The position numbers and the translations under genes are program-made. Positions 43,255 through 49,535 of a stretch of 64,000 bases of DNA are shown here, in pieces. The DNA comes from Solirubrobacterales bacterium (GTDB lineage Bacteria > Actinomycetota > Thermoleophilia > Solirubrobacterales > 70-9). Every line of letters starts with the position of its first letter. The stretch's first letter is position 1. The notes beneath the pieces were generated by a model. It was not told the DNA's origin. It searched no databases and worked only from the letters and a program-made list of their open reading frames with translations. The DNA is taken from the NCBI GenBank assembly GCA_021323175.1, contig JAJTCK010000002.1, positions 467 to 64,466 of the forward strand. Direction: 5' to 3'.

Positions 43255-44670
43255 CTAGGTCCTCGTCGGCTGCCTGTCGGCCGGTGCTCCGCGCGCCCCG
43301 TTCGTGTGGGTCTCGTACTCGTCGGGGAGCTCCCAGAGGACATTGTCCAGGCCCTCGGCCTGGTGCTCGTCCGACACCCGCATCCCGAACGTCTTGTTGA
43401 AGATGAATCCCAGAACCGCCGCCGTGAGCATGCCTGCCCCGAAGCAGACCGCGATCCCGATCAGCTGCCACCAGAGCGTGATCTCGGCGTGCTGGAAGGC
43501 GTAGTCGCCCTCGGTGATGCCGAAGTAGCCGCCCTTGGCGGTCCCCCAATCGATCAGCCCGACCATGATCAGCCCATAGGTGCCGGCCGTGGCGAACACC
43601 GGGAGCAGCTTGTGATCGTCCACGTTCTTGCGGCCGAGGAACTCGTACACGGCGTACGAGAGGAACGGTGCGCCCGCGGAGACCAGGAACATCTGCCACG
43701 GCTCGTACACGTCCATCGCCGCCGCCCCCGCCACGTATCCGGCGAACGGGCCGAGCAGCAGGTAGCTGTACTTCCTGGTCCGGTAGGCGATGATCGCGCC
43801 GGTCAGCGCGCCGCCGGCCCACGAGAGGCCGTAGTTGTTGAACGCGATGCCGACGCTCGTGTCCGCCATCGTCACCGAGACGGCGAGCGCTTCGGGATCG
43901 AAGAAGAACAGGCACGACAGGATCACCATGGGCAGGCCCGCGAAGATCAGCAGCGCGCCTGTCGACAGAGTCCAGAGGTTGCCCGTGCGGTACTCGGCGA
44001 CCTTCGAATGCGCCTCGAACATGCCGGGTCGTTTGCCCAGCATGCGCACGAACACCAGTGCCATGCCAGCCGGGAACAGATAGACGAACCCGACTCCGAA
44101 GAAGTCGTGGAAGCCCTCGTTCGTGAGCGGTCCTACCGAGCCCCAGGTCAGGTAGCTCAGCAGCGAGGAAACGATCGTGGCCACGAAGCAGGTGATGAAG
44201 TAGGCCGAGGCCTTCATCCGCTCCGAGACCGCGAAGTGCAGCAGGATGTTCACGATTCCCGCGAACACCGCCAGGAAGAAGATGAAGATCTGGAAGTTGT
44301 TCAGGCCCGGGAAGACATCCGGTGACACGTTCTGTGCCAGGTCGTTGGCCAGCGTGCCGCCGAGCCACCAGTCTTCGATCGACTGGCCGAGCGGGTTCGC
44401 GACCTCGAAGGCATCGTTGTACTGCCAGTTCCAGAGCGCGAAGCCGATCCCGAAGTAGGTGGCGAACCCGATGAAGAAGCCGACGAGCTTCTCGATCGTG
44501 GAGTTGAACACGTTGAGACGTCTCACGCTGGCCGCGTCCAGCATCACGAGTCCGACCACGACCATCAGCGCTCCCACGGTTCCTGACGCATAGACGAGGT
44601 TCTGCGTCAGCATGTTCGTGGTCACCTGCTCGGGGAAGATCTCCCCGGCTTGGGCAAGCAAGTTCAGCAT
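43255..44670 (-). CDS. Divergent Amt/MEP/Rh-fold transporter lacking the twin-His pore motif
   Basis: ORF 43255..44670. Amt-like N-terminal LVMLDAASVRRLNVFNST (compare PG.A.FY.G.VR.KNV.N) and C-terminal EGLD motifs. By-eye alignment to E. coli AmtB puts Tyr at His168, Ala/Thr at His318, and no GWFGFN motif. GGAGAGG RBS. Confidence 0.7.
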   Translation of the reverse strand: MLNLLAQAGEIFPEQVTTNMLTQNLVYASGTVGALMVVVGLVMLDAASVRRLNVFNSTIEKLVGFFIGFATYFGIGFALWNWQYNDAFEVANPLGQSIEDWWLGGTLANDLAQNVSPDVFPGLNNFQIFIFFLAVFAGIVNILLHFAVSERMKASAYFITCFVATIVSSLLSYLTWGSVGPLTNEGFHDFFGVGFVYLFPAGMALVFVRMLGKRPGMFEAHSKVAEYRTGNLWTLSTGALLIFAGLPMVILSCLFFFDPEALAVSVTMADTSVGIAFNNYGLSWAGGALTGAIIAYRTRKYSYLLLGPFAGYVAGAAAMDVYEPWQMFLVSAGAPFLSYAVYEFLGRKNVDDHKLLPVFATAGTYGLIMVGLIDWGTAKGGYFGITEGDYAFQHAEITLWWQLIGIAVCFGAGMLTAAVLGFIFNKTFGMRVSDEHQAEGLDNVLWELPDEYETHTNGARGAPADRQPTRT

Positions 44671-44910
44671 GACCTCTCCTTTCGGATGGGCGTCCGGACT
44701 ACCGGCCGGTTGCCCACACGTGTCTCCCTCTGTTCCGAATTCGGGCTCTCACCCGTGAGGCGCGCTGGTTATACCCATTCGTTCAGCCGGAAGTCAAGTC
44801 GGAAATGCCACTATCTTCGAAAGGAAGGGAGTGCGACCTTTACTTCCGACCCAGGGTCAGGCAGAATCGATTTTTGTACAGATTTGTCCAGGAGGAGGGA
44901 GCGAGGCCGT

Positions 44911-46314
44911 ATGACCGAGAAGATGTGGGGGTCCGAGCCGTTCTGGGGGCTCGACTACGACTGGGATCCGGATTGGGTCCTGACCGACCGTCAGAAGGAG
45001 CTCCGCGAGACCCTGATCGGGCTCTGCGAGACCGAGATGCGGGCCAACGCGAAGCGCTCGGACGACGAGCTGCTCTACCCGCGCCGCAACTTCGAGCTCC
45101 TCGCCGAGAACGGCTTCCTCAGCCTGACCGTGCCCGAGGAGTACGGCGGCCTGGGCCAGAACCACGTCGGCTTCGCGATGGTCTGCGAGACGCTCGCCCG
45201 CTACGGCTGCGCCTCGACCGCGATGTGTTACGTGATGCACATCGGCGCGGTCGCGACGATCATGCTCCGCCCCACCGACGCGCTGGTCGACAAGTACATC
45301 CGCCCCCTCAACGAGGAGGTGCGAATCGGGACCCTCTCCTACTCGGATCCCGAGACCGGCTCACACTTCTGGTACCCCGTCAGCTCGAACGCCCAGAAGT
45401 CCAACGGCGGCTACAAGGTCAACAAGAAGGCGAGCTGGACGACCTCCGGCGGTTTCGCCGACTTCTACGTGGTGCAGACGACCAGCCCCGACTTCAGCGG
45501 ATACGACGACCTGTCCGTCTTCGTCATCGACGGCGACGACGTGCAGGCCCAGCCCTCGCTGTGGGACGCCCTCGGCTTGCGCGGCAACCAGTCCGGCCCG
45601 ATCCAGGTCGAGGACATCGAGATCCCCGACGACCAGGTCGTTGGCCCGCTCGGGGACGGCGCCAACTCCAACGACGAGGCGGTCGACCCCTGGTTCCTGG
45701 TGGGCTCGTCCTCGGTCTGGAACGGCATCACGCTCGGGGCGATCGACATCGCCAAGCGGCACACGACGCGCAAGAAGCACGTGGACGTCGGCATGCGGGT
45801 CGCGGACTACCCCACCATCCAGGACTACGTCGGCGAGGCAGTCATGGACACGAACGCCTGCCGGGTGTTCGTGTACTCGGTCGCACAGGCGATGGACAAG
45901 GCGACCGACGACAACACCAGGGTCCTGAAGCCGGGCGAGACCGCCCGCGCCGACTATCTCCACTGGGCGTGGCAGATCAAGTTCGAGGCGGCCAAGAACA
46001 CCGCACACCACGTGGACAAGATGCTGCACGCATGCGGCGGGTCCGGGTACAAGAAGGACATGGAGCTGGAGCGCTACGTGCGCGACGCGAAAGCCGGATG
46101 GGTGATGGGGCCGACCAACGAGGTGCTGCGCCAGTTCGTCGGCAAGGCGGTCCTGAACGGGTTCGATTCGCTCGACTACTGGAACCAGACCTACAACCGC
46201 CGCGTCGTGGAGAACGAGGTCAAGAAGCTCGACTCGACCGCCAAGCGAGAGCTGGCCGAGCAGCTCGTCGAGCAAGCTGACAAGGCCGAGGGCACCGAGC
46301 CGGCGAAGGCCTAG
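44911..46314 (+). CDS. Acyl-CoA dehydrogenase-fold flavoprotein (possible two-component flavin-dependent oxygenase)
   Basis: ORF 44650..46314 trimmed to ATG 44911 (MTEKMWGSEP). ACAD-like segments FLSLTVPEEYGGLG, KKASWTTSGG, GGSGY..RYVRDAK. The MCAD Y-E-G-T catalytic-Glu position reads M-G-P-T. About 40-aa charged C-terminal tail. Confidence 0.8.
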   Translation: MTEKMWGSEPFWGLDYDWDPDWVLTDRQKELRETLIGLCETEMRANAKRSDDELLYPRRNFELLAENGFLSLTVPEEYGGLGQNHVGFAMVCETLARYGCASTAMCYVMHIGAVATIMLRPTDALVDKYIRPLNEEVRIGTLSYSDPETGSHFWYPVSSNAQKSNGGYKVNKKASWTTSGGFADFYVVQTTSPDFSGYDDLSVFVIDGDDVQAQPSLWDALGLRGNQSGPIQVEDIEIPDDQVVGPLGDGANSNDEAVDPWFLVGSSSVWNGITLGAIDIAKRHTTRKKHVDVGMRVADYPTIQDYVGEAVMDTNACRVFVYSVAQAMDKATDDNTRVLKPGETARADYLHWAWQIKFEAAKNTAHHVDKMLHACGGSGYKKDMELERYVRDAKAGWVMGPTNEVLRQFVGKAVLNGFDSLDYWNQTYNRRVVENEVKKLDSTAKRELAEQLVEQADKAEGTEPAKA

Positions 46315-46318
46315 GACC

Positions 46319-48652
46319 ATGGCCGCCGCAACGCGCCCCGTCGTGATCGGCAATGGCCTGTTGCCGATCGACCGCTCGCTGGAGTCGCACTGGGTCCGCC
46401 CCGGTGCGGCTACCGCGGTGCGGCTGCGGCCTGACGACCTGCTCACGGTGTTGAACCGGGACGGCGGACAGATCGCCGAGCTCACCGTCCTCGACGCCGA
46501 GGGCGGCGAGGACGCCGCCGCGATCGGCGCCCGGGCCGACGGCGACGCGACGGTCCTCCGTGGGCTCTCGGGCAACGGGGGCGCCGAAGGGTTCCTTGGC
46601 CAGCTCCACACGAGCGGGCTGATCCCCGATGAGGCCAAGGCGCTGCGGCTGTTCGCCGCGGATACCCCTCGGGGCGCCACCGAGACATTCACGGTCGAGC
46701 GCGAGGCGACCGCGATCGTCGCCGCGCCGGGAGGCCGGGTGGTGGAAGGCGACTGGCCGGCATCGCCGCTGATGGTCGAGGTCAAGCGCGCGACGCCGCG
46801 TGCGTTCGACGAGGTCGAGCTGCCGCCGCCGCTGGCCGAGCCGCGGCTGGACTTCCGCGTCGACAAGGCGAGCGCACTCGCCTACGAGGTGCAGGCAGGC
46901 GAGTACATCCAGATCATCGACGTCCGGGGCAAGCAGTGCTCGGACTTCCTCGCGTTCAACCAGAGCAAGCTCGAGCGCGGCATCGAGCGCGGCCTGGACT
47001 CGACCACGACTCGCTCCCTGATGGGCTCGGCCTACCCGACCCCCGGCCTGTATCGCAAGAGCTTCGACATCGACCAGGACCCGCTGGTGGAGGTGGTCCA
47101 CGACACCGTCGGCCGCCACGACAACTTCGGGCTCGCCTGCTTCGCCAAGTACTACGAGGACCTGGGCTACCCGGGGCACGTCAACTGCAGCGACAACTTC
47201 AACGGGGAGCTGGTCCCGCGGGGGGTCGAGGCGCGGGCCGGATGGAACGCGCTCAACCTCTTCTACAACACCACCTTCGACACGGCCAACGCTCTGATCG
47301 CCGACGAACCGTGGTCACGGCCCGGCGACTACGTGCTGATGCGCGCTTCGAACCACCTGCTCTGCGCCTCATCCGCATGCCCCGACGACATCGACCCCGC
47401 CAACGGCTGGGAGATCACAGACATCCACGTCCGCGTGTACCGGCCCGAGAACCGGTTCTCGCTGGCGATCGCCCATCGCGTCACACCGGAGGCCGACCCC
47501 GTCATGACCAAAGAGACCGCCTTCCACGCCCGCACCTCCGCCCTGACGGGCGACATGGTCGAGTACCGGGGCTACTGGCTGCCCGACTGCTTCCCCGGCG
47601 AAGGGTCAATCGGCGAGTACTGGGCGTGTCGCGAGAAGGCGGTAATCATGGACCTCTCCCCGCTCCGCAAGTGGGAGGTCCTGGGCCCCGATGCGGAGAT
47701 GCTGATCCAGCGCGCGATCACACGCGACGCTCGCAAGCTGTCCGTGGGCCAGGTCACCTACACCGCGGTGTGCAACGAGACCGGCGGGATGCTCGACGAC
47801 GCCACCGTCTATCGCCTCGGCGACGACAACTTCCGCTTCGTGGCCGGGGACGAGTACACCGGCGTGCACCTGAACAAGCTCGCTGACACCGAGGGGCTGA
47901 AGGTCTTCGTGAAGCCCTCGACCGAGCAGCTTCACAACGTCGCCGTCCAGGGGCCCGAGAGCCGCGAGATCCTGAAGAAGATCGTGTGGACCCCGCCCGA
48001 CCAGCCGGCCCTCGAGGACCTGAAGTGGTTCCGCCTCCTGATCGGGCGGATCGGCGACTACGACGGCACGCCGATCGTCGTCTCGCGGACCGGCTACACC
48101 GGCGAGCTGGGATACGAGGTGTGGTGCCATCCCGACGACGGCCCCGCCGTCTGGGACGCGATCTGGAAGGCCGGCGAGGGACACGGGCTGCAGCCGCTCG
48201 GGCTGTCGGCGCTCGACATGCTCCGGATCGAATCCGGCCTGATCTTCGCGGGCTACGAGTTCGACGACCAGGTGGACCCGTTCGAGGCCGGGATCGGCTT
48301 TGCCGTGGCCCTGGACTCGGAGGACGACTTCGTCGGCAAGCAGGCTCTGATCGAGCGCTCCGAGCACCCCCAGCGCAGGCTGGTCGGCCTGGAGCTCGAG
48401 GGCCGGGAGACCGCTGGCCACGGCGACTGCGTGCACGTGCCCGGCGAGCGCGCCTCGGTCGGCGTCGTCACCAGCGGCACGCGCAGCCCGGTCCTGCGCA
48501 AGAACATCGCGCTCTGCCGGATGGCCGTCCAGCACACCGAGACCGGCACAGCGATCGAGGTCGGCAAGCTCGATGGGGAGCAGAAGCGAATTCCGGCGCA
48601 GGTCGTCCCGATCCCCTTCTATGACCCGAAGAAGGAGCGTCCGCGGTCATAG
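46319..48652 (+). CDS. DUF1989-like N-terminal region fused to a GcvT-type aminomethyltransferase/THF-binding domain (TMAO-demethylase-like architecture)
   Basis: ORF 46319..48652, 777 aa. The central region carries Cys residues (GLAC, HVNC, LLCASSAC). The C-terminal half has GcvT-like motifs (MDLSPLRKWEVLGPDA, SRTGYTGELGYEV, LDMLRIESGL). Start is 4 nt after the ACAD-fold stop. Confidence 0.8.
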   Translation: MAAATRPVVIGNGLLPIDRSLESHWVRPGAATAVRLRPDDLLTVLNRDGGQIAELTVLDAEGGEDAAAIGARADGDATVLRGLSGNGGAEGFLGQLHTSGLIPDEAKALRLFAADTPRGATETFTVEREATAIVAAPGGRVVEGDWPASPLMVEVKRATPRAFDEVELPPPLAEPRLDFRVDKASALAYEVQAGEYIQIIDVRGKQCSDFLAFNQSKLERGIERGLDSTTTRSLMGSAYPTPGLYRKSFDIDQDPLVEVVHDTVGRHDNFGLACFAKYYEDLGYPGHVNCSDNFNGELVPRGVEARAGWNALNLFYNTTFDTANALIADEPWSRPGDYVLMRASNHLLCASSACPDDIDPANGWEITDIHVRVYRPENRFSLAIAHRVTPEADPVMTKETAFHARTSALTGDMVEYRGYWLPDCFPGEGSIGEYWACREKAVIMDLSPLRKWEVLGPDAEMLIQRAITRDARKLSVGQVTYTAVCNETGGMLDDATVYRLGDDNFRFVAGDEYTGVHLNKLADTEGLKVFVKPSTEQLHNVAVQGPESREILKKIVWTPPDQPALEDLKWFRLLIGRIGDYDGTPIVVSRTGYTGELGYEVWCHPDDGPAVWDAIWKAGEGHGLQPLGLSALDMLRIESGLIFAGYEFDDQVDPFEAGIGFAVALDSEDDFVGKQALIERSEHPQRRLVGLELEGRETAGHGDCVHVPGERASVGVVTSGTRSPVLRKNIALCRMAVQHTETGTAIEVGKLDGEQKRIPAQVVPIPFYDPKKERPRS

Positions 48653-48733: not shown

Positions 48734-49357
48734 CTAGGTCAACTCGGCGCCGGAGGCGAGGCCTCCGTACTGGCCGCCGTGGAACAGCAGGGGCTGGGCG
48801 TTCCCCTCGTAGCACGCATCCTCGACCCGCCCCAGGAAGAGGGAGTGATCGCCTCCCCAGTAGGACTTGGCGACCTTGCTGACGAACTGGGCGGCCGAAC
48901 CGGCGACTACCGGGGTCTCGTGGACGATTTCGAAACTGGGTTCGTCGCGGCCGTCCCCTGGCCTGCCGGCGAACTGGTCCGAGAGATCGCGCTGCCCGGC
49001 GGCGAGCACTGAGACGCCGAAGCGCTGTCCCTCGTAGAGCAGCGAGCACATCTTGGTGCGGCGGTCCACCGAGATCAGGACCAGCGGAGGCTCCAGGCTG
49101 ACGGACATGAAGGCGTTCGCGGTCATCCCGTGGACCTGGTCACCGACCTTCGTCGTGATCACTGTGACACCGGTGGCGAACATCCCGAGCGTCTGGCGCA
49201 GCGCCTTGGCGGGATCGTCGCCCTCGATCTCGAGGGCCGCCTCGTCGGATGGATCGGGCGGTCCCTGACCGATCCCGTCAGGACCCGTCCCGACCCAGGC
49301 CGCGACCTCGGCCAGCTTCAGGTCGAACTCGGGCGGCTGGGCGTCAGGCTCGGTCAC
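48734..49357 (-). CDS. HpaC-like NAD(P)H-flavin reductase (split-barrel flavin reductase domain)
   Basis: ORF 48734..49534. FATGVTVITT..HGMTANAFMSVSLEPPLVLISV..GDHSLFLGRV. The ORF's 5' end is the antisense of the tRNA gene, so the start was moved to GTG 49357 (GTG 49390 is an alternative). Confidence 0.82.
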   Translation of the reverse strand: MTEPDAQPPEFDLKLAEVAAWVGTGPDGIGQGPPDPSDEAALEIEGDDPAKALRQTLGMFATGVTVITTKVGDQVHGMTANAFMSVSLEPPLVLISVDRRTKMCSLLYEGQRFGVSVLAAGQRDLSDQFAGRPGDGRDEPSFEIVHETPVVAGSAAQFVSKVAKSYWGGDHSLFLGRVEDACYEGNAQPLLFHGGQYGGLASGAELT

Positions 49358-49431
49358 AGGTGCATTATCCCCCGTATCAAGCGCTCGCACGCCCAGTCCG
49401 TCCACGTTTCGCGAGTAACCTGACCAGGCTC

Positions 49432-49505
49432 GCGCCCGTAGCTCAGCTGGATAGAGCGCCGCCCTCCGGAGGCGGAGGCCACAGGTTCGAATCCTGTCGG
49501 GCGCG
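49432..49505 (+). tRNA. tRNA-Arg (anticodon CCG)
   Basis: Hand-folded cloverleaf: acceptor GCGCCCG/CGGGCGC, D-arm GCTC-AGCTGGATA-GAGC, anticodon stem CCGCC/GGCGG with loop CTCCGGA, T-arm ACAGG-TTCGAAT-CCTGT. 74 nt, with no encoded CCA. Confidence 0.93.
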
Positions 49506-49535
49506 CTGCGCCGCGTCGGCCTGGCGGAGCGCACC

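Follow-up and report, generated by a model that had tools for sequence, protein, structure and literature searches.

The twin-histidine (twin-His) motif is treated as the signature and the mechanistic core of the Amt/Mep/Rh proteins (PMC10433425, PMC9040831). Escherichia coli AmtB needs it for selective deprotonation, and double-His variants either lose ammonium and methylammonium transport in vivo or become unselective (PMC3647058, PMC9040831). A 2023 review of Amt proteins calls the motif highly conserved and never mentions dimethylamine (DMA) or trimethylamine (TMA) (PMC10433425). The 2024 paper on TmaT names just two proteins with an implied role in microbial TMA transport to date, TmaT and the unvalidated MttP (PMC11708041). 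An "amt" gene with a solute-binding protein was drawn by Zecher et al. (2020) as a recurrent element of Rhodobacteraceae clusters for TMA, DMA, and monomethylamine (MMA), and was not analysed there (PMC7574528). In the literature searched, which did not extend to subscription journals, no TMA- or DMA-carrying Amt and no natural twin-His-less clade was found. Here, a His-less Amt-family gene is described from a 64,000-nucleotide stretch (the window) of contig JAJTCK010000002.1, part of a metagenome-assembled genome (MAG) of a Solirubrobacterales bacterium. Its product, named Amt-YF here, represents a family that is uncharacterised within that literature, and comparative evidence inclines us, with modest confidence, to read it as a facilitator or channel that would serve TMA and/or DMA rather than ammonium.

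The open reading frame (ORF) comprises 471 codons and starts with an ATG 7 bases downstream of an AGGAG ribosome-binding site. A first-pass annotation, made from the DNA letters alone, had placed it in the Amt family, and this is borne out by a match to PF00909 (Ammonium_transp) over residues 31-444 (121.1 bits, cut-off 23.2, E 6e-35) and by an N-terminal block and EGLD motif that align with AmtB. The Pfam scan returned no other domain, hence no signalling domain and no BCCT profile. The curated models for Amt subfamilies are far from reached: Amt-YF scores 139.3 against the TIGR00836 'amt' cut-off of 343.3 (less than half), 76 against 514 for the marine-subtype model TIGR03644, and 22.9 against 657 for the AmtB equivalog NF007947, and none of the NCBIfam curated models is specific for the Amt-YF clade. 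Since phmmer gave merely marginal matches in the PDB (E = 0.11), a fold search was used. An AlphaFold2 model built from a 34-orthologue alignment (pLDDT 79.9, pTM 0.84) has eleven long helices, and its best Foldseek matches in the PDB are Sd-Amt1 (8qj4/8qj3), Archaeoglobus fulgidus Amt-1, E. coli AmtB, and Ks-Amt5 (6eu6), with target-normalised TM-scores of 0.78-0.84 and a root-mean-square deviation (rmsd) from these known Amts of 4-5 Å. The last helix is followed by a tail of about 30 residues that is predicted to be disordered. Amt-YF is a true but very divergent member of the Amt fold.

AmtB positions are assigned to the S1 site, the Phe gate, the S2 site, and the pore after the 2023 review (PMC10433425) and the AmtB structures, and are given in the mature numbering of E. 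coli AmtB from NC_000913. Three alignments agreed on a single register: a HMMER pairwise alignment to Sd-Amt1, a MAFFT (L-INS-i) alignment with AmtB and the three other Amts of the host, and an hhalign comparison of a 34-sequence Amt-YF profile with a 12-sequence canonical profile (probability 100%, E 3.5e-40, 403 aligned columns). Both histidines stay absent under profile alignment to AmtB. His168 is Tyr197 in all three alignments, as the first-pass annotation had read by eye. The loss of His318 likewise stands, but the Ala or Thr proposed in its place is ruled out by HMMER, MAFFT, and hhalign, which all put Phe359 there; a one-residue deletion after DDH had been overlooked. The motif GWFGFNAGS is lost as claimed, although the true counterpart is GLPMVILSC, one residue out of register with the AGLPMVILS first suggested. 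The further claim that both the Phe gate and the Trp of the recruitment site had gone is right for the inner gate and the S2 residues and wrong for the outer site: loss of the recruitment Trp is ruled out, as Trp148 is kept as Trp176, and Phe103, the outer-gate Phe107, and Asp160 also survive, with only Ser219 of the S1 residues changed, to Cys253.

From the inner gate downward, by contrast with this surviving outer site, the polar residues of the S2 site and the pore are all exchanged for apolar ones. In addition to the two histidines, Trp212 is replaced by Leu246, Phe215 by Val249, and Asn216 by Ile250, and Ala162 corresponds to Phe191, Gln104 to Leu133, Ser263 to Leu306, and Thr273 to Ala316. 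The resulting pore has no proton-relay or hydrogen-bonding residue save one Tyr hydroxyl. All ten changes (Q104L, A162F, H168Y, W212L, F215V, N216I, S219C, S263L, T273A, and H318F) are identical in 34/34 aligned orthologues drawn from Thermoleophilia and from Alpha-, Beta-, and Gammaproteobacteria, in which the equivalents of Phe103, Phe107, Trp148, and Asp160 are nearly invariant. Two conserved periplasmic insertions also occur, at about residues 88-122 and 254-270.

Relatives of Amt-YF number 812 in a database of proteins clustered at 90% (the top 120 all at least 63% identical) and 111 in the species genomes of GTDB, with orthologues 60-90% identical spread over Thermoleophilia and Alpha-, Beta-, and Gammaproteobacteria. 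Pairwise dN/dS ratios of the orthologues lie at 0.03-0.25, and the family is, by this comparison of coding sequences, under purifying selection. Given such ratios and the identity of the changes in every aligned orthologue, the pore pattern is attributable neither to chance nor to decay, and a decayed gene or pseudogene is ruled out by the intact frame together with the conservation of the orthologues. Searched against 1.84 billion representative proteins, the family proved sharply bounded: about 14 full-length 50% clusters follow at 29-45% identity, and canonical Amts come next only at E ~1e-10. A maximum-likelihood tree unites the Tyr/Phe orthologues and the distant clusters in one long-branched clade (support 100), sister to the His-containing 'marine-type' Amts, with the Tyr/Phe orthologues as its crown group (support 100). 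Tyr occupies the His168 position in 12 of 13 distant clusters, which have a small residue (Gly, Ala, Thr, Leu, or Asn) at that of His318, while one cluster (P0152) keeps both histidines. A cross-phylum transfer from Actinomycetota to Proteobacteria, at which the rooted tree hints, cannot be claimed, as monophyly of the actinobacterial sequences is not rejected by the approximately unbiased test (p = 0.35). A survey of 201 genomes from the class to which the window belongs found core orthologues in only four, and in 0/17 other genomes of the same family, whereas Tdm occurs in 14 of the 201; Amt-YF is therefore a patchy accessory gene.

Gene neighbourhoods were counted within 10 kb at 81 loci by BLAST with reference proteins, because naive clustering of ORFs gave many antisense artefacts in high-GC loci and was set aside; the counts are lower bounds, many contigs being short. 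A methylated-amine catabolic gene, encoding Tmm, TMA dehydrogenase (TMADH), Tdm, DmmDABC, or the N-methylglutamate (NMG) pathway, lies within this distance at 48 of the 81 loci, and 30/39 remain linked when loci are collapsed to genera or labels. Tmm is found at 25 loci, Dmm subunits at about 21, Tdm at 11 (the survey of Tdm-like neighbours that had been proposed at the outset), TMADH at six, and NMG genes at six, and the linkage covers three non-homologous routes of TMA oxidation. The orthologue stands beside TMADH and electron-transfer flavoprotein genes in Methylophilaceae and beside dmmDABC in Methylophaga, while the order in Rhodobacteraceae is amt, GntR/FCD regulator, solute-binding protein, tmm. 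In the window, Amt-YF diverges across a 240-bp spacer from a gene for a protein of the acyl-CoA dehydrogenase (ACAD) fold, which is followed by a Tdm-architecture fusion, with a flavin reductase gene beyond; a Thermoleophilaceae MAG holds the same module with the NMG pathway downstream. A glnK (P-II) gene adjoins Amt-YF at 0/81 loci; two P-II genes do lie within 10 kb, and each precedes a canonical amtB.

Co-occurrence extends the association to genomes in which the genes are apart. Five genomes with an unlinked Amt-YF were chosen (Leisingera, Roseovarius, Aminobacter, an Oceanospirillaceae MAG, and a Thiotrichaceae MAG). Of these, four encode a Tmm orthologue (70-82% identity) and the fifth TMADH (77%), with DmmC in two of the five. 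An evenly drawn set of 121 Rhodobacteraceae genomes contains four with Amt-YF and 32 with Tmm, and all four Amt-YF carriers are among the Tmm carriers (hypergeometric P ~0.004, relatedness not corrected for), three of them with the two genes 0.3-8 kb apart. The methylated-amine link is, at the level of comparative genomics, well supported because of this neighbourhood across phyla and this co-occurrence with TMA-oxidising enzymes. Both observations back the suggestion of the first-pass annotation that an Amt lacking the twin-His is unlikely to be a standard NH4+ channel and may carry methylated amines.

The other Amts of the host bear on the task left to Amt-YF. The host MAG (2.3 Mb, 93.6% complete) has three further PF00909 genes, two of which adjoin glnK genes. 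In one glnK-linked canonical Amt (G000:C137:6155-7333; L001:1429-2733, reverse strand), Glu replaces His168 and Phe replaces Trp148, which makes a natural Glu-His pore like that of fungal Mep1/3. The third gene encodes a 'marine-type' Amt (G000:C165:10357-11586) in which the twin-His is kept, with the changes F103A, W212F, N216Y, and S219C. The region L096:5265-15077 covers this gene and, 1.9 kb downstream of it, gmaS-mgsA-mgsB-mgsC with a DAO-family gene, which make up the host's MMA (NMG) pathway. A divergent GAF/PucR regulator is adjacent, and the marine-type Amt is a likely MMA importer for the pathway. Uptake of ammonium is already served by the two glnK-linked canonical Amts, MMA uptake is probably provided for as well, and the natural task of the Tdm-linked copy would therefore be the tertiary and secondary amines. 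Canonical Tmm was not found in the host MAG. An FMO-like gene there was ruled out as a Tmm orthologue, being only about 33% identical over parts and in an unrelated context.

In the mechanism proposed for such a channel, protonated TMA or DMA would be caught by cation-pi contacts at the kept outer site (Trp176, Phe132, Phe136, and Asp189). The mechanism by which NH4+ is deprotonated would be unavailable without the twin-His proton relay, and a more hydrophobic substrate could instead pass through the conduit, which is apolar throughout, in one of two forms: the free base, or an organic cation of low hydration stabilised by Tyr197, Phe359, and Phe191. Uptake would be drawn by immediate oxidation in the cytoplasm, through the divergent putative ACAD-fold oxygenase, flavin reductase, and Tdm in the window and through Tmm, TMADH, or DmmDABC in other hosts.

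Several observations weigh against TMA or DMA transport. Tyr and Phe are bulkier than His and might close off the pore, as happens in the sensor Ks-Amt5, although the loss of Trp212 and Phe215 and the rmsd of the model argue that the helices have moved. Amt-YF is missing from 28 of the 32 Tmm-positive Rhodobacteraceae, and the gene is therefore dispensable for TMA use. A search for Tdm among the four Thermoleophilia carriers of Amt-YF found no match in two, and several Gaiellaceae loci have neighbours that are merely loosely C1-related. Adjacency is also scattered over steps acting on TMA, DMA, and MMA and does not single out one of them as the substrate. The broader proposal that Amt-YF founds a clade of organic-amine channels of the Amt fold, which would work without twin-His or deprotonation and would carry TMA/DMA here and pyridine-type compounds in sister branches, is offered tentatively, and we rate its chances a little short of even.

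Amt-YF might work in the opposite direction, as an efflux valve for a product of methylated-amine catabolism, either DMA where there is no DMA monooxygenase or excess NH3/NH4+. A channel is intrinsically bidirectional, Rhodobacteraceae growing on methylamines excrete ammonium (PMC7574528), and DmmC (PF11927) gave no match in the host MAG, so that the DMA formed by Tdm may not be processed further there; this absence is weak, as the same search matched no control genome and the MAG is incomplete. Efflux of DMA agrees poorly with the position of Amt-YF directly beside DMA-consuming dmmDABC in at least four lineages (L013, L032, L064, and L080), and an all-apolar pore without the twin-His fits NH4+ poorly, which makes this account unlikely. 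The first-pass annotation had paired its methylated-amine carrier with the option of a sensor, and this half of the proposal is now less favoured. A non-conducting sensor (transceptor) of methylated amines that signals to an adjoining regulator would resemble Sd-Amt1 and Ks-Amt5, which are among the best structural matches (8qj4/8qj3 and 6eu6); bulky pore aromatics occlude Ks-Amt5 (PMC10433425), and regulators often adjoin Amt-YF (GntR/FCD in 24 loci, a two-component system in Methylophaga). However, known Amt sensors have retained the twin-His, while Amt-YF has no fused signalling domain and only a short, predictedly disordered C-terminal tail, and the adjoining regulator varies in family between lineages and is absent in the window, leaving no conserved sensor-transducer pair; we regard sensing as a rather poor prospect.

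Retention of an ammonia or ammonium function by an altered mechanism, for example as an NH3 gas channel for nitrogen handling in methylamine users, is doubtful to much the same degree. Membership of the Amt superfamily with Trp148, Phe107, and Asp160 kept speaks for it, as does the annotation of the gene as an ammonium transporter in its sources. Yet the scores are far under the curated Amt cut-offs (139 against 343 for TIGR00836), the S2-site and proton-relay residues are all lost, and double-His variants of AmtB no longer transport ammonium in vivo (PMC3647058); the host, moreover, has three other Amts, and linkage of Amt-YF to glnK is lacking. It is least probable, and by our estimate very improbable, that the substrate is some other small solute, whether hydrophobic or cationic (for example another amine, a quaternary ammonium compound, or a pyridine), with the methylamine neighbourhood secondary. 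The range of substrates does appear to vary within the clade, as a 35%-identical Tyr-clade member stands beside isochorismatase and Amdase (NicF/NicE-like) genes, but it is the crown clade with Amt-YF that is specifically and repeatedly linked to genes for TMA, DMA, and MMA. Transport of TMA and/or DMA stays the reading to which we lean.

Features of the window and of related loci, with positions, strands, and supporting evidence
Feature	Position	Strand	Basis
Amt-YF, His-less Amt-family protein, 471 aa, 11 predicted transmembrane helices	43255..44670	-	ORF, PF00909, AlphaFold2, Foldseek
Tyr197 codon (= AmtB His168)	44080..44082	-	hhalign, L-INS-i, codon check; Tyr in 34/34 core orthologues
Phe359 codon (= AmtB His318)	43594..43596	-	Alignments and codon check; Phe in 34/34 core orthologues
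LPMVILSC, residues 246-253, in place of AmtB WFGFNAGS (S2 site, inner Phe gate)	43912..43935	-	Invariant or nearly so in core family
Kept recruitment-site stretch, Trp176 (AmtB W148) to Asp189 (AmtB D160)	44104..44145	-	Alignments and codon check
Phe132 and Phe136 (AmtB F103, F107), kept	44263-44277	-	Alignments and codon check
Intergenic spacer between the divergent Amt-YF gene and ACAD-fold/Tdm operon, GC 0.575	44671..44910	.	Same divergent layout in L010/L011
ACAD-fold protein, putative oxygenase component partnering Tdm	44911..46314	+	Pfam ACAD N, M, and C domains; adjoins Tdm and Amt-YF in L010
Trimethylamine N-oxide demethylase (Tdm) architecture, DUF1989 + GCV_T + GCV_T_C	46319..48652	+	Domain matches
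Flavin reductase, ORF start probably later than 49534	48734..49534	-	PF01613; 196-aa homologue in L010 module
FMO-like protein of the host, 479 aa, between DsbD-like, hydrolase, and thioredoxin genes	G000:C160:18168-19607 (L097:6169-7608)		266 bits to PF00743
Peripla_BP_6 protein in L036, L040, L046, L083, and about 18 other Rhodobacteraceae loci	e.g. L083:12411-13730	-	
Amt-YF/marine-type Amt pairs	L064:11614-12978, L077:1686-2732, also L012, L014, L023, L031		

Around the divergent spacer of the window, GC content is 0.638 in Amt-YF, 0.575 in the spacer, and 0.66 in the ACAD-fold gene, against a window mean of 0.695, and the lower GC of 43255-46314 would fit either horizontal acquisition or the composition of membrane proteins. 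The spacer contains a TGTACAA(A) motif in common with the Thermoleophilaceae locus (L011:9820-10000), where it is repeated as GTACAAACTTGTACAAGCGATTTGTAT; the motif resembles a GntR/FadR-type operator, and the window has no adjoining regulator gene. At 22 loci, an orphan Peripla_BP_6 solute-binding protein is encoded between Amt-YF/GntR and tmm with no ABC permease or ATPase gene near; it might bind TMA in the periplasm or act as a sensor together with the channel or the regulator. At six loci a marine-type Amt accompanies Amt-YF, either as a tandem pair (with a spacing of 243-245 bp in Sulfitobacter) or within 2-7 kb, which suggests complementary substrate ranges. In Gaiellaceae (L015:232-1263, reverse strand; L014; L031), the divergent gene encodes a flavin reductase fused to a cyclic-nucleotide-binding domain, and a DAO-family oxidoreductase, GlcD/GlcF-like proteins, formate-tetrahydrofolate ligase, and a Peptidase_C26 protein are encoded near Amt-YF; this neighbourhood may represent a different, uncharacterised route of amine oxidation. 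The distant Tyr-clade Amt mentioned above comes from another Thermoleophilia genome (G128:C3; L098:8019-10313), where it is divergent from the isochorismatase-family gene, with Amdase-family (NicF/NicE-like), class-III aminotransferase, and Pot-type ABC genes adjoining. The context is of a nicotinate/pyridine or polyamine type, and this one locus suggests that the whole Tyr-clade may carry organic nitrogen compounds. The Amt-YF proteins and the neighbour spacing are identical in a Devosia MAG (L081) and Ponticoccus litoralis (L083), and the 'Devosia' contig may be mis-binned Rhodobacteraceae DNA.

A selected, cross-phylum clade in which the twin-His and the polar pore lining are both replaced is a natural experiment on the selectivity of the Amt fold. 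TMA, a climate-active precursor, supplies carbon and nitrogen in the sea and in soil, and Amt-YF provides a candidate channel encoded within tmm, tmd, tdm, and dmm clusters that are found in Methylophaga, Methylophilaceae, Rhodobacteraceae, Aminobacter, Hyphomicrobium, and Thermoleophilia. If the broader proposal of an organic-amine clade holds, no Amt-family member before Amt-YF had a substrate other than ammonium, and Amt-YF would fill the place of the missing TMA importer in methylotrophs, roseobacters, and soil Thermoleophilia. The gene would also correct a systematic mis-annotation as "ammonium transporter".

With the canonical Amts (E. coli AmtB and A. fulgidus Amt-1), Amt-YF shares the 11-helix fold, the G..R.KN block, the ER motif, Asp160, Trp148, Phe103, Phe107, and EGLD, whereas their twin-His, Trp212, Phe215, Asn216, Ser219, Thr273, and Gln104 are apolar in Amt-YF, which unlike them has two periplasmic insertions and no glnK partner. 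The nearest His-containing relatives are the 'marine-type' (TIGR03644-like) Amts, which have the FHD motif, S219C, and loop insertions in common with Amt-YF but keep His168, His318, and Phe215, and whose host paralogue is linked to the NMG pathway rather than to Tdm. The distant Tyr-clade Amt of G128 (35% identity), with its NicF/NicE-like neighbours, is separate from the crown clade.

As best structural matches, Sd-Amt1 and Ks-Amt5 offer precedents for an Amt fold repurposed from bulk ammonium transport; they differ in keeping the twin-His and the ammonium site and in being fused to HAMP-GGDEF or histidine-kinase modules, whereas Amt-YF is stand-alone. The fungal Glu-His proteins Mep1/3 also depart from the His-His pair, but they exchange only one His, for Glu, and still carry ammonium. 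Among the AmtB mutants at His168 and His318 (PDB 2npc-2npk), substitutions by Phe or Ala exist, yet these are single-site changes in an otherwise canonical pore, whereas in Amt-YF the whole pore lining has co-evolved. TmaT, of the BCCT family, and MttP resemble Amt-YF only in the proposed TMA substrate, which TmaT too binds via aromatic residues; their folds and families are unrelated to that of Amt-YF, and TmaT is a Na+ symporter.

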